64,000 bases of DNA, from the IMG/VR virus record IMGVR_UViG_3300003316_000399, positions 1 to 64,000 of that record; one strand, written 5' to 3'. Under the pieces are notes generated by a model that searched no databases, had not been told where the DNA came from, and worked only from the letters and a program-made list of their open reading frames with translations. Shown in pieces: positions 1 to 13,693 of the stretch. The stretch is from a virus. Its lineage: Duplodnaviria > Caudoviricetes. Positions within the stretch are counted from its first letter, which is position 1; every line of letters starts with the position of its first letter. The position numbers and the translations under genes were made by a program.

Positions 1-1329
1 CTAAGACGCCTCTTCCAGATCAACATATGCTTCATTGCTCTTGATCAAACCCTCCAGCTCATAGAAGATTTCAGATTTAGACTTTATAAATTCAACGCCG
101 CCGTCATTTGACTCGCAGCGCAATACAATACCCTCACGTATATGATTACCCAACTCATTCGCAGCATTAGTATAATATTTTACCATCTCACACATGCGAT
201 GATATGATTCTTCAGTTCCGTCGTAATACATTACTGTGTCGAGCGGCACAGGTGTTAAACCAAGTGATCGACAGGCTGCCACCATCTGAGACCATGATAA
301 ATCAAACGCATTACCATCAGGTCCCACCTGAGTGACGCGATATACAAACAGTTTTAATTCTCCAGGATCACAACCATACGTATATCGCATTGTATCGCCA
401 TAACGTTGCTTGAGACTAGGAAATTTATGCAGTGGTTGCGGCTCCATAATTAATTCTGTGCTATTATGATAACCTACCAGCTCATAATAAATCATCATTC
501 CTTTTGGTAACTTAATACCACGGAGAGAACTGGCACGAAATGTGTTATCCCCATAATATCCATTATATGGGTTCTTCATTACATCCTCTGCAGTACCGAG
601 GATAAGAGTGCGAGTCCCAATAATGTGTTTCCACACCATCGGAACATTATTAGCAATTCCTAGACATGATTGTAGCCATCGGACAAAGCGATTTTTAACG
701 TCGTTCAACAACGGCGCGTCAAATGGAATATTGCCAAAGCGCCCGCTTGTGCCATGCAGTTTGTGAGTGAATACAATCACACCAGGCTTAATCGCGCGTG
801 AATGTGCAAAGAAATGCTGACTCTTCACGTGATCAGGAAACATCGGGTGTGTAACACGCACGGCTTTGTATCGTGCTGCAATGGCTGCCAGGGTTGCTAG
901 TGTATGCCGCTTGCGAAAAATAGGGAAAAATTTCCCGTCATCTCGCTGCCATCCAGACCAGCTAAAATCATCTGCCGCGTTGCACCATTCACCCTGAGTA
1001 AGATTACGAGTTTGACAGTCATCAATGTAATCGAGATATTTTAATGGGCACCAAAATCCTGTGCTACGGACACCTCTGAAATTCTGTGCGCGAACACTTC
1101 CATTATCCTCAAAATAGCCACCTAAATCACGATAAAGCTTGTTAGCGGTGAGAAAATCTGCATGCAACTCTCCATCTGAGGGGAAAAAGATTCCTACATC
1201 ACCATCCTGTGTGTCAAGACTTACAATAACCGTCGCGCTTAATGTATCGTTGTTAGGCACCGCGATTTTGATGCGATCTGCATTTGGATGCTGACGTGTT
1301 ACTACGGATGTAATATATGCTTTGTACAT
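1..1329 (-). CDS. ATP-dependent RNA ligase (DRB0094/Rnl2-like) with N-terminal OB-like domain
   Basis: Nucleotidyltransferase motif I KLHGT, motif IV REGIVLR and motif V FIKSKS; N-terminal HPNADRI typical of the DRB0094 family; near Pnkp. Confidence 0.88.
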   Translation of the reverse strand: MYKAYITSVVTRQHPNADRIKIAVPNNDTLSATVIVSLDTQDGDVGIFFPSDGELHADFLTANKLYRDLGGYFEDNGSVRAQNFRGVRSTGFWCPLKYLDYIDDCQTRNLTQGEWCNAADDFSWSGWQRDDGKFFPIFRKRHTLATLAAIAARYKAVRVTHPMFPDHVKSQHFFAHSRAIKPGVIVFTHKLHGTSGRFGNIPFDAPLLNDVKNRFVRWLQSCLGIANNVPMVWKHIIGTRTLILGTAEDVMKNPYNGYYGDNTFRASSLRGIKLPKGMMIYYELVGYHNSTELIMEPQPLHKFPSLKQRYGDTMRYTYGCDPGELKLFVYRVTQVGPDGNAFDLSWSQMVAACRSLGLTPVPLDTVMYYDGTEESYHRMCEMVKYYTNAANELGNHIREGIVLRCESNDGGVEFIKSKSEIFYELEGLIKSNEAYVDLEEAS

Positions 1330-2923: not shown

Positions 2924-3832
2924 CTAAAAGTTCCCAGCAGCCACTTGACAACAACGAAGTCCAAGCGACCGCCACATATTCACAACACTATCCCGATCGT
3001 CAAAGACAAGCTTCACATCATACCACGGCTCAATACACCGACGGTAAATCTCTTCTTTTACAATGTGATCAGGTCGAAAATCATTAAACCCGCGCATGAA
3101 GAGTGATCGATATCCCCAGTCTTCATGACCATCCCATTCATAAATACCCGCGTTTTCCAGAGCTTGTTTAGTGTACCATCGCGCCTCGGCACGTCGGCCT
3201 GAGACAAGAATGATAGTGTGATCATTGATCCGATTGTACATATTGTAAAGATTGACAATCGGATCAATTGGCACATCGTCTAAAATTGCCTTCCCAAAGA
3301 AACCATCCCAATTCTTGGGAGATTGCTCAAGGAAATGCTTTCGATGTTCAATGTCAAACAACGTACCGTCGAGATCAAAAATAACTGCTGGGATCTTCTC
3401 ACTGCCGGGTGGAAGGGCAGGATATTTACCCGCGTCTTTGAACATCTTCTCAATGACACTAGCACCCACGGAATGTGTGCGTTTAGCATCTCGCTGGACA
3501 CATGTCTCAAAGTCCACGTGCCAGAAATCATGCTTTACTACAGTGTAATTATATTTCTCTGCTAGATTCTTCCATCTCTGGACTGTTCGAGGATTGGTGT
3601 TTGTGTTGTCGATGATTATATTCCAAATTCCATCCGCAAGCACGGCCTCAGCATAATCAAACATGTACTGCTGAACATACCGCTCATGCAATTCTGGATT
3701 CTTATAACGCAGCTCATCAGCATTCACGTATGCCCAAAATCCATCAGTAGGATTACCACTGTCCATCAATTGTTTACGGAATGTTGTTTTTCCTGAGGCG
3801 GGTGGTCCAATTAGGATACACATAATTGGCAT
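2924..3832 (-). CDS. pseT: polynucleotide 5'-kinase / 3'-phosphatase (T4 PseT-like)
   Basis: N-terminal P-loop GPPASGKTT and IIIDNTN; C-terminal HAD motifs FDLDGTL, LVSGR and VFDDR. Confidence 0.93.
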   Translation of the reverse strand: MPIMCILIGPPASGKTTFRKQLMDSGNPTDGFWAYVNADELRYKNPELHERYVQQYMFDYAEAVLADGIWNIIIDNTNTNPRTVQRWKNLAEKYNYTVVKHDFWHVDFETCVQRDAKRTHSVGASVIEKMFKDAGKYPALPPGSEKIPAVIFDLDGTLFDIEHRKHFLEQSPKNWDGFFGKAILDDVPIDPIVNLYNMYNRINDHTIILVSGRRAEARWYTKQALENAGIYEWDGHEDWGYRSLFMRGFNDFRPDHIVKEEIYRRCIEPWYDVKLVFDDRDSVVNMWRSLGLRCCQVAAGNF

Positions 3833-6670: not shown

Positions 6671-6992
6671 AGATACGGATTTTATAATCCGACGAGGGTA
6701 ATGGGAGCTTGTGTTTTTGTGCTATTTCCAAAATTGTTGATCTATCAAAATGGGAAATAGGCTCAAATTCTATATCTATCTCACCCAAGAAAAGCTCTGT
6801 CGGCAGATGATAAAATATCATATGAGGATCAAAAGCTTGTAGATTTTTCACGAGATTGTTAAAATAATAACGCGCGTCATAATCACGCTGATAAGAAAAT
6901 CGACATACATAAACACCATGTTCATCAAAAATATAGATAACTTTATAAAAGTCAAAACAAACGGCTGTTTTATAGGCATTACTCATATCCAC
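6663..6992 (-). CDS. hypothetical protein
   Basis: ORF overlapping its neighbours in the operon. Confidence 0.55.
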   Translation of the reverse strand: MDMSNAYKTAVCFDFYKVIYIFDEHGVYVCRFSYQRDYDARYYFNNLVKNLQAFDPHMIFYHLPTELFLGEIDIEFEPISHFDRSTILEIAQKHKLPLPSSDYKIRICE

Positions 6993-7374
6993 TACCTATC
7001 CATTCTTTTCTCAATGTAATACCATCATGGAAAACAACATAACGTATCTTTGCCTTAATTATCATGACGCGACACATTTTACACGGCTTACTTCTGAGAA
7101 AACCGTTATATTTTGCACTGTATAATGTAGCGGCACTGAGATCCGCACCACCACATTTTCGGATCGCGTTATGCTCGGCGTGTACACTGAGTAATGATCT
7201 TCCTATTAATCGTACATGTGCTGGATGTGTTTTAAGAGCATTGTTTGCCGTAACAAGAATTCTGTCGCCTTGCGCGATCACAACGCCGTGCTTTTGGTTG
7301 TGTAATGATTGTGCAGCAATACGCATCGCGTAATCAAATAAACGAACATCACGTGCATTGATTACATTGCTCAT
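6979..7374 (-). CDS. zinc-dependent cytidine/dCMP deaminase-family protein
   Basis: HAE...PCxxC (VHAEHNAI; SKPCKMC). Confidence 0.85.
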   Translation of the reverse strand: MSNVINARDVRLFDYAMRIAAQSLHNQKHGVVIAQGDRILVTANNALKTHPAHVRLIGRSLLSVHAEHNAIRKCGGADLSAATLYSAKYNGFLRSKPCKMCRVMIIKAKIRYVVFHDGITLRKEWIGSGYE

Positions 7375-12874: not shown

Positions 12875-12949
12875 TGGTACGCCTGACAGGAGTCGAACCT
12901 GCAACACTCGGCTTAAAAGGCCGCTGCGCTACCATTGCGCCACAGGCGT
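12875..12949 (-). tRNA. tRNA-Lys(UUU)
   Basis: ACGCCTG/CAGGCGT acceptor, CT-TTT-AA loop, GGTTCGACTCC T arm and encoded CCA. Confidence 0.93.
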
Positions 12950-12961
12950 GCAATAGCTAAA

Positions 12962-13032
12962 TGCATCTTGCGAGACTCGAACTCGCAACACCTGCTTGGA
13001 AGGCAGGCATGTTGCCATTACACCAAAGATGC
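12962..13032 (-). tRNA. tRNA-Gly(UCC), no encoded CCA
   Basis: GCATCTT/AAGATGC acceptor, CCTGC-CTTCCAA-GCAGG anticodon arm, TTCGAGT T loop; discriminator A. Confidence 0.9.
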
Positions 13033-13044
13033 ACATTAAAAAGG

Positions 13045-13109
13045 ACCGACCAGCTACAACATTGTAGGCGAATTGTGTACGACGCGGTAAAGACAATTCT
13101 CTGGTCGGT
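13045..13109 (-). ncRNA. putative structured small RNA (three-way junction)
   Basis: 9-bp closing stem ACCGACCAG/CTGGTCGGT enclosing hairpins GAATTGT/ACAATTC and CTACA/TGTAG; lies between tRNA genes. Confidence 0.5.
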
Positions 13110-13124
13110 AAGGAATAAATTAGC

Positions 13125-13228
13125 CACAGCCAGTAGGATTTGCACCTACAACAGTATTTCGGAGTGTGCATTCCCCGCTTTATCGGCTTATAAAAGCCGC
13201 CGTTTTTACTAATTAAACTATGGCTGTG
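13125..13228 (-). ncRNA. atypical tRNA-like RNA (8-nt anticodon loop, extra-long variable region)
   Basis: ACAGCCA/TGGCTGT acceptor, GTTT/AAAC D stem, CGGC-TTTTATAA-GCCG, extra hairpin CGGGG/CTCCG, GTAGG-TGCAAAT-CCTAC T arm. Confidence 0.7.
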
Positions 13229-13232
13229 ATAA

Positions 13233-13321
13233 TGGAGCGCAGCGGAATTGAACCGCTCTGCCGTCCACGAAGACGGCATATATGGCCCTGGCGTAAGGCC
13301 GGATCTTCCAGATCGCGCCCC
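13233..13321 (-). ncRNA. atypical tRNA-like RNA with alanine identity (G3:U70, A73)
   Basis: GGGGCGC/GCGCTCC-A acceptor, AGCGG-TTCAATT-CCGCT T arm, 7-bp extra arm TGCCGTC/GACGGCA, non-canonical D and anticodon arms. Confidence 0.7.
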
Positions 13322-13476
13322 ACAATATTAGATATTGTGTATGCCTGTCTCTCTGCTTTACTTGCGCTTACAGGCAACACCTTACGGTAAAAGGCAAGTT
13401 TTAAGGCTGCAGAGCTACCCACAGTCATTATAATTTCACGGTGTACGTCAGACTACGAATTAAGTACATCCGCACT

Positions 13477-13551
13477 TGGGAATGAGGACGGAATCGAACC
13501 GTCTCCGTGCGCTATCGCCGCACTACATCTACCAATGATGTTACGATTCCC
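13477..13551 (-). ncRNA. degenerate or atypical tRNA-like RNA (GAT at the anticodon position)
   Basis: ACATC/GATGT D stem, GTGCG-GCGATAG-CGCAC, GACGG-TTCGATT-CCGTC T arm, bulged GGGAAT/ATTCCC acceptor. Confidence 0.6.
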
Positions 13552-13553
13552 AA

Positions 13554-13629
13554 TGGTACGGGCGGAGGGACTCGAACCCCCGACGCGCTGTATATAAGAC
13601 AGCCGCTCTCACCTCTGAGCTACGCCCGT
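13554..13629 (-). tRNA. tRNA-Ile(UAU)
   Basis: ACGGGCG/CGCCCGT acceptor, GCTGT-CTTATAT-ACAGC anticodon arm, TTCGAGT T loop, A73 and encoded CCA. Confidence 0.9.
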
Positions 13630-13664: not shown

Positions 13665-13693
13665 ATTGTAACACAGTGTACCATATTTGTCAA
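13665..13693 (-). promoter_or_regulatory. sigma70-type promoter of the tRNA/small-RNA cluster
   Basis: TTGACA-17nt-TACAAT with TGTGT extended -10, about 35 nt upstream of tRNA-Ile. Confidence 0.85.

Follow-up and report, generated by a model that had tools for sequence, protein, structure and literature searches.

A candidate alanine-type tRNA mimic within the tRNA operon of an orphan phage

Our study examined an 89-nt element with the form of a transfer RNA (tRNA), encoded on the minus strand of the IMG/VR virus record IMGVR_UViG_3300003316_000399. The analysis covered the first 64 kb of this 91.6-kb record, and this whole 64,000-nt stretch is referred to here as the window. The gene is real and its RNA is derived from a tRNA; we read the element, tentatively and at a little under an even chance, as an alanine-type tRNA mimic that is non-decoding or at best very weakly GCG-decoding, that is co-transcribed with the tRNAs of the phage and that possibly serves as a bait or sink. 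The original prediction, made from the sequence alone, had described an RNA of alanine identity that was poorly suited to decoding and resembled either the tRNA-like domain (TLD) of a transfer-messenger RNA (tmRNA) without a message or an allo-tRNA.

An alanine-type cloverleaf

The minimum-energy fold of the element was exactly the cloverleaf set out in Table 1, with 29 pairs and zero mismatches, and its energy of -47.5 kcal/mol was compared to -31.7 ± 3.1 kcal/mol for 200 shuffled sequences (z = -5.06; 0/200 shuffles as good). This z-score was the strongest folding signal within the operon, and the G+C content of the element was 63 %, compared to ~41 % for the genome. ARAGORN, at its default threshold, called the element tRNA-Ala(cgc) with a score of 101.8, on a scale where the five canonical tRNAs of the genome scored 116.6–121.9 and low-threshold noise reached ≤93. 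The structural parts listed in the original prediction were all present in the sequence, namely the acceptor stem with G3:U70 and A73, the canonical T arm, the GATCT-GGA-AGATC hairpin, the loop TACGCCA with its central CGC, A33 and C37, the 7-bp extra arm, and a G at position 8 in place of U8.

All members of the alanine identity set (G1:C72, G2:C71, G3:U70, G4:C69 and A73) are found at the acceptor end, and the first five pairs of the stem together with A73 form the classic determinant set of alanyl-tRNA synthetase (AlaRS), as had been proposed. G3:U70 is the sole wobble in the stem, A73 follows its 3' strand, and no other RNA of the operon carries G3:U70. AlaRS is known to accept any acceptor helix that contains G3:U70 and, by this rule, the element should be alanylated. 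tRNAs with an irregular cloverleaf and G3:U70 receive alanine in Escherichia coli (PMC5389517). The numbering of G3:U70 and A73 is valid only if RNase P cuts before G1, because an additional U(-1):A73 pair, seen in the ARAGORN drawing and in the fold of a 90-nt version, can extend the acceptor stem to 8 bp. An encoded CCA within GCUCCA was considered and rejected, as this register would reduce the acceptor to ~5 pairs and conflict with the T stem.

Decoding capacity

Normal decoding by the element is unlikely, to judge from its sequence, because A33 and C37 are combined with other deviations. The comparison was based upon 432 distinct tRNAs called in 2.27 Mb of phage loci, among which position 33 was U in 422, C in 9, G in 1 and A in none, whilst position 37 was A in 371, G in 54, U in 7 and C in none. 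The poor fit for decoding that had been predicted was thus reflected in two residues with 0/432 occurrences each. The anticodon started at position 33–36 in 408/432 phage tRNAs (94 %) and at ≤30 in only 4/432; in the element it starts at 29–30. Rather than a canonical 7-nt loop with U33 and a purine at 37, the element has UACGCCA. In a class-I body, U8 would be accompanied by a D loop of 7–11 nt and a short variable loop; the element has G8 instead, only 3 nt in its D loop, and an extra arm of 18 nt. A U27-A33 pair is also predicted (P = 0.82), which would shrink the anticodon-like loop to 5 nt. The gathering-threshold list of the Rfam tRNA model (RF00005, 29 bits) contained six other tRNAs of the window and not the element. 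Among phage tRNAs whose body is otherwise class I, some (Ile-UAU, Met, Asn, Thr, Lys and Trp) bear a long extra arm, and the extra arm alone is therefore not disqualifying for decoding.

Comparison with tmRNA

The element is not a tmRNA TLD, and the tmRNA/SmpB reading has been largely excluded. According to that reading, a message-less tmRNA-like domain would titrate SmpB or enter stalled ribosomes without tagging, and the idea has a real precedent because RNAs of the DS6A type are known: the tmRNA of mycobacteriophage DS6A is 'little more than the TLD', and inhibition of tmRNA, perhaps via SmpB titration, is described for a similar molecule (PMC4131195, PMC11915505). The element shares an alanine acceptor end, a canonical T arm, the lack of a coding function and a short AUCUGGA after the acceptor stem with the TLD-only tmRNAs of DS6A and some organelles (PMC4131195, PMC11915505) and, like that of DS6A, it is phage-encoded. 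More broadly, the GGGGC/GCUCC-A end, AUCUGGA and a UUCAAnU T loop are common to the element and tmRNA, and G3:U70 and the discriminator A are present provided that the 5' end is G1. The tmRNA-like 5' end put forward in the original prediction held in part, as AUCUGGA is common with the Rfam tmRNA consensus (GGGGguGAucuGGaUUCGAC), but the likeness is short and offset by one base, and UUCGAC is absent.

The remaining evidence argues against membership of this family. No Rfam tmRNA family matched the element at E ≤10 and ARAGORN -m reported no tmRNA there, even at the 80 % threshold, whereas seven phage TLD-only RNAs used as positive controls scored 40.9–72.4 bits on RF00023 (one further match, in L133, was weaker at 29.2). 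The best match within the clan was to selenocysteine tRNA (tRNA-Sec; RF01852), at 26.8 bits and below the gathering score of 47. When compared with the consensus of 25 phage TLD-only RNAs, the element lacked the open D loop (GG...UUCGAC) and had a closed 5-bp D hairpin instead (P = 0.94), CAG rather than GGAC stood directly 5' of its T stem, and both an anticodon-like arm and an extra arm were present. On the tmRNA domain, SmpB fills the place that these two arms take here. SmpB titration and untagged ribosome rescue, which the original prediction had offered as roles, are left unsupported because they rest on the failed tmRNA reading, and we regard a message-less domain as highly improbable, more so than any other explanation considered below.

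A pattern scan of IMG/VR for an alanine-type acceptor with an over-long body returned many phage RNAs of 79–86 nt that are message-less tmRNA domains, with the form GGGGCUG-GAUGGUUUCGAC-long hairpin-GGAC-T arm-CAGCUCCA. They comprise an acceptor, a GG..UUCGAC loop, one capped hairpin, GGAC and a T arm, and they match Rfam tmRNA end to end with the ~300-nt middle deleted, at 41–72 bits. At least 23 distinct sequences were found in at least 39 loci of IMG/VR phage contigs, including L005:7634-7712(-), L017:1927-2005, L027:2218-2299, L023:598-679, L012:1022-1104(-), L132:2613-2697 and L138:417-499(-), plus about 30 more. The message-less cases cited in the tmRNA literature consulted are only DS6A and two plastid cases, and the spread of such domains among phages seems to be under-described.

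Homologue searches and rejected candidates

A blastn search of 50,697 phage records returned matches to canonical tRNAs only and none to the element. Across IMG/VR, the exact D-arm pattern gave zero matches, acceptor plus T-loop patterns gave no relative among the matches listed (mostly message-less tmRNA domains), and an anticodon-arm plus T-loop pattern gave 15 chance matches beside ordinary tRNAs. Two metagenome pattern scans found no relative of the element; across GTDB genomes, the 3' 22-mer gave zero matches and the D-arm pattern 88, of which 0 were tRNA-like. A single-sequence covariance model (R1), run on 1.3 Mb around 80 DUF7448 phage genes, detected no homologue. Its top foreign match (22 bits) was a 114-nt RNA at L264:9302-9415, in which an alanine-type end, GGGGUAG...CUACUCCA, encloses a second T-loop-like hairpin. 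Another irregular alanine-ended tRNA-like gene is an identical RNA of 82–85 nt in three IMG/VR phage contigs (L024:12333-12417(-), L047:2607-2691(-) and L061:683-767). Its end is of the form GGGGCGG/CCGCUCC-A-CCA, its D arm is normal and its anticodon region is expanded and irregular; ARAGORN called it tRNA-Thr(cgt) with a score of 106.5.

Several other identities were tried and rejected. A 71-aa open reading frame overlapping the element had no relative among 5.8 billion proteins, and a coding reading is therefore unsupported. As an antisense regulator, the element had a longest complementarity to the rest of the genome of 11 nt, equal to that of shuffled controls. An attachment site (attP) or host tRNA fragment was set aside, as the 3' half matched no bacterial genome in GTDB and the element is a complete cloverleaf. 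The loop includes UACG, which is the core of the site deaminated in tRNA-Arg(ACG), and a gene for a deaminase is located at 6979-7374; this gene is of the dCMP-deaminase type (phrog_174, E = 3.5e-14) and scored 21 bits compared to a TadA cut-off of 150, and the idea of a TadA substrate was dismissed.

Operon and genome setting

Among the proteins encoded in the window are a family-A DNA polymerase, a DnaB-type helicase, tail proteins and an RNA ligase. The polymerase was only 28 % identical to its nearest cultured match, in Pseudanabaena phages, and queries with the polymerase and DUF7448 proteins found no close phage relative; the phage is an orphan. A Logan assembly yielded the contig again, in a form identical to the record that adds no diversity. 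The record is labelled a provirus in IMG/VR, and in its last 4.5 kb (87000-91632, beyond the window) the G+C content rises from ~40 % to 57–60 %. This G+C-rich end could be host flank or a mis-join, and its open reading frames gave no informative family or Atlas match.

The RNA operon (12875..13629, minus strand) occupies a gene-free stretch of ~0.9 kb behind a promoter-like site (Table 1), and tRNA-Arg(UCU) and tRNA-Leu(UAA) genes are found near it. The five canonical tRNAs of the phage all read A-ending codons (AGA, AAA, GGA, AUA and UUA), and CCA is encoded by 4/5 of them and by 0/3 of the irregular RNAs. Both irregular neighbours of the element, the GAU-type RNA and the 103-nt RNA, also have abnormal anticodon loops. 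In the former, the acceptor stem is 6 bp long, the D arm is normal, the loop reads GCGAUAG (with C33), the T stem spans 8 bp with a single mismatch, and CCA is not encoded. The latter has the same D arm (UAGUUUAA..GUAAAAC) and UAU triplet as a tRNA-Ile(UAU) of 92–96 nt that recurs in large phage tRNA arrays (L273:13124-13219, L248:7367-7458, L299:1753-1844 and L057:10205-10298(-)) and whose long extra arm often contains CCAGAUUAG, but differs from it in an 8-nt loop and in its extra arm. The 155-nt spacer that separates the GAU-type RNA from the element had no significant structure (z = -0.2), and a search of Rfam with the three-way-junction RNA found no match. The polynucleotide kinase/phosphatase (Pnkp) and the RNA ligase form a tRNA-repair pair, and both map with the tRNA genes to a region that looks early. 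In T4, tRNA cut by a host anticodon nuclease is mended with Pnkp and RNA ligase.

Table 1. Location of the element, its parts and associated features, in coordinates of the window
Feature	Coordinates	Strand	Remarks
Whole element, five-arm tRNA-like RNA, G1 to discriminator A	13233..13321	-	89 nt; RNA position p = window coordinate 13322-p
Acceptor stem, 5' strand GGGGCGC (RNA 1-7)	13315..13321	-	Pairs with 13234-13240 (GCGCUCC, RNA 82-88)
D hairpin GAUCU-GGA-AGAUC (RNA 8-20)	13302..13314	-	Abuts acceptor stem directly; 5 bp, GGA triloop; P(G8:C20) = 0.94
Anticodon-like arm GGCCU-UACGCCA-GGGCC (RNA 22-38)	13284..13300	-	Loop 13289-13295; CGC central, A33, C37
AUAUAU linker, 5' of extra arm	13278-13283	-	Sequence
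Extra (variable) arm GCCGUCU-UCGU-GGACGGC (RNA 45-62)	13260..13277	-	UCGU loop; predicted folds; 7 bp (7-8 bp across folds)
Canonical T arm AGCGG-UUCAAUU-CCGCU (RNA 65-81)	13241..13257	-	Aligned to T arm of Rfam tRNA-Sec model with high posterior probability
Acceptor 3' strand GCGCUCC and discriminator A at 13233	13233..13240	-	Sequence; UUAUC comes next, CCA not encoded
Promoter-like site TTGACA-17-TACAAT, extended -10 TG, heading the RNA operon	13665..13693	-	11/12 consensus matches; consensus match only
tRNA-Ile(UAU), first in operon	13554-13629	-	Operon order listed 5' to 3'
GAU-type tRNA-like RNA, directly after tRNA-Ile(UAU)	13478-13551	-	Rfam tRNA-Sec 21.7 bits; no ARAGORN call
Ile(UAU)-like RNA, 103 nt, long extra arm, 8-nt loop; follows the element	13125-13227	-	Spacer from element only 5 nt
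Three-way-junction RNA, 65 nt, between irregular Ile(UAU)-like RNA and tRNA-Gly	13045-13109	-	Perfect 9-bp closing helix; -24.5 kcal/mol, z = -3.7
tRNA-Gly(UCC)	12961-13033	-	Operon member
tRNA-Lys(UUU)	12875-12949	-	Last in operon
T4-type polynucleotide kinase/phosphatase (Pnkp)	2924..3832	-	phrog_505 E = 2e-63, full length; PF25109 HAD_PNKP E = 2.6e-36 and P-loop kinase domain
RNA ligase, Rnl family	1..1329	-	phrog_968 E = 8e-30; PF09414 32.8 bits

Proposed role and alternative explanations

As a tRNA mimic, the element would be co-transcribed with the ordinary tRNAs of the phage from the promoter-like site (13693-13665), and its 5' end would be cut by RNase P, as for the neighbouring tRNAs. 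The 3' end would be formed by RNase Z or an exonuclease and completed by the CCA-adding enzyme, a step that we infer because no CCA is encoded, and AlaRS would then charge the RNA with alanine. Its role outside decoding may be that of a bait or sink for a host factor by which tRNAs are handled or attacked, for example an anticodon nuclease or a different tRNA-directed defence. This role appears the most plausible one. The genome encodes Pnkp and RNA ligase for repair and two more tRNA-like genes with deviant anticodon loops. The departures of the element from a canonical tRNA all lie in loops and junctions and break no pair, which suggests selection on the fold rather than decay. A wider proposal, that alanine-chargeable, non-decoding look-alikes together with tRNA repair enzymes constitute a broad and undescribed phage habit against host tRNA-directed immunity, is in our view doubtful. 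Candidate targets under this proposal would be anticodon nucleases or PIN-type tRNases, and ACGC, the reported motif of VapC-mt4 cleavage of tRNA-Ala and tRNA-Ser (PMC4705866), is present in the loop.

A number of points weigh against the mimic. Pnkp and the ligase are located 9–12 kb from the element and are circumstantial for a decoy role, and no homologue that could show conservation or covariation under selection was found in the collections searched. Were RNase P to keep the U(-1):A73 pair, the wobble would become the fourth pair and the discriminator a U, and alanine identity would be weaker. A reader of GCG would not be useless to this phage, given that GCG makes up 23 % of its alanine codons (409/25,147 codons overall), and tRNAs with a mutated U33 keep some activity. 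Furthermore, the degenerate neighbours suggest an eroding tRNA array.

The main rivals are a weak GCG reader and a neutral relic, each of which we consider unlikely. A working, odd-looking elongator tRNA-Ala(CGC) would decode GCG during infection, and its unusual core and loop may resist a host tRNA nuclease. The ARAGORN call and the codon usage fit such a gene, as do the presence of tRNA-Ala(CGC) genes in phages (5/27 phage tRNA-Ala calls), the recurrence of long extra arms in class-I phage tRNAs and C33 in 9/432 phage tRNAs, which indicates that position 33 is not absolutely fixed. However, this explanation has to accommodate A33 and C37, both unseen in the phage tRNAs, the 3-nt D loop without U8, a score below the Rfam tRNA threshold and a loop predicted to close to 5 nt, and GCG breaks the pattern of A-ending codons read by the five canonical tRNAs. 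A pseudo-tRNA left over from a once larger array, functionless and still excised via its intact acceptor and T arms, would be consistent with an orphan phage, with the failure to find a homologue of the element in the collections searched and with the lowest ARAGORN score among the calls in this genome. The operon also holds the GAU-type RNA, with its mismatched acceptor and over-long T stem, the three-way junction and the unstructured 155-nt spacer. Such decay would be expected to drift to A+T, whereas the element is G+C-rich compared with its genome, has mismatch-free pairing throughout and the strongest folding z-score of the operon, and has its only wobble pair placed exactly at 3:70.

Two further explanations are very improbable. 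In the first, the element is a dedicated alanine carrier for a non-ribosomal tRNA-dependent reaction (Fem-/MurM-type, or peptide or lipid aminoacylation) and its loop keeps it off the ribosome; this would account for alanine identity together with unfitness for decoding, and non-proteinogenic tRNA-Gly species in staphylococcal cell-wall synthesis provide a precedent. No tRNA-dependent transferase family was detected among the 33 window proteins scanned, however, and the ligase operon at 18–28 kb comprises, according to an earlier note, ATP-dependent amidoligase and ATP-grasp enzymes, which are not users of aminoacyl-tRNA; only one GATase-like protein of it was scanned. In the other, the tRNA shape acts as punctuation that directs RNase P and RNase Z cuts in a polycistronic precursor, in keeping with the position of the element between other RNAs, 5 nt from the next, and with its canonical acceptor and T arms, the parts read by these two enzymes. 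Against punctuation, the neighbouring tRNAs supply their own cleavage sites, and the full alanine identity set and the perfect D, anticodon-like and extra arms are left unexplained.

Comparison with known systems

The allo-tRNAs were found by Mukai et al. in 2017 as false positives of the tRNA-Sec model, and are characterized by a long extra arm, a compact Sec-like D arm and a 12-bp acceptor branch arranged 8/4 or 9/3. A subset with G3:U70 inserts alanine in E. coli, and in some polycistrons of irregular tRNAs there are members that become charged and yet go unused in translation (PMC5389517). The allo-tRNA label in the original prediction was apt for the extra arm, the compact D stem-loop, G3:U70 on a body unlike that of tRNA-Ala and the sub-threshold tRNA-Sec match, and the operon, like the irregular polycistrons (PMC5389517), mixes regular and irregular tRNAs. 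It was less apt for the acceptor branch, as the 7/5 fold of the element (-45.6 kcal/mol) was better by 4.7 kcal/mol than the 8/4 fold (-40.9 kcal/mol). The latter can be drawn via G8:U81, for which thermodynamic prediction gave P = 0.006, compared to P(G8:C20) = 0.94. The element also differs in having a D loop of 3 nt rather than a tetraloop, and a deviant anticodon loop (A33, C37), whereas tested allo-tRNAs decode efficiently; and allo-tRNA hosts are Acidobacteria, Clostridia and Proteobacteria, whereas the element is carried by a phage. On the basis of these modelled folds, the element is not a strict allo-tRNA, but a 7/5 relative of the G3:U70 allo-tRNAs. Identity as tRNA-Sec itself was rejected, as the loop centre is CGC and not UCA, the discriminator is A (or U) and not G73, and the model score falls short of its gathering threshold.

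With canonical tRNA-Ala, the element has in common acceptor pairs 1–5, A73, the T arm, CGC in the middle of a 7-nt loop and the ARAGORN assignment. It differs in its length of 89 nt, compared to 72–78 nt for 26/27 phage tRNA-Ala calls, and in the long extra arm, the 3-nt D loop, G8, A33, C37 and a score below the Rfam tRNA threshold. The element would be ordinary if it turned out to be a weak GCG reader or just a tolerated relic.

The closest parallel in setting is T4, which likewise encodes Pnkp and RNA ligase, and whose species 1 and species 2 RNAs (rnaC and rnaD), both small and stable but not tRNAs, are transcribed and processed together with the phage tRNAs. These RNAs are longer (about 120–140 nt) and are not alanine-type cloverleaves, and they are likened to the element by description only. 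The element, in a genome that bears Pnkp and a ligase, is a concrete and cheap test case for the role of non-tRNA genes in phage tRNA operons, a question that dates back to the species 1 and 2 RNAs of T4. Unlike the anticodon-less alanine-type look-alikes, the element keeps its whole cloverleaf and, if it is charged with alanine yet stands outside decoding, it would add a full-cloverleaf form to the few phage RNAs in which tRNA mimicry serves something other than translation.

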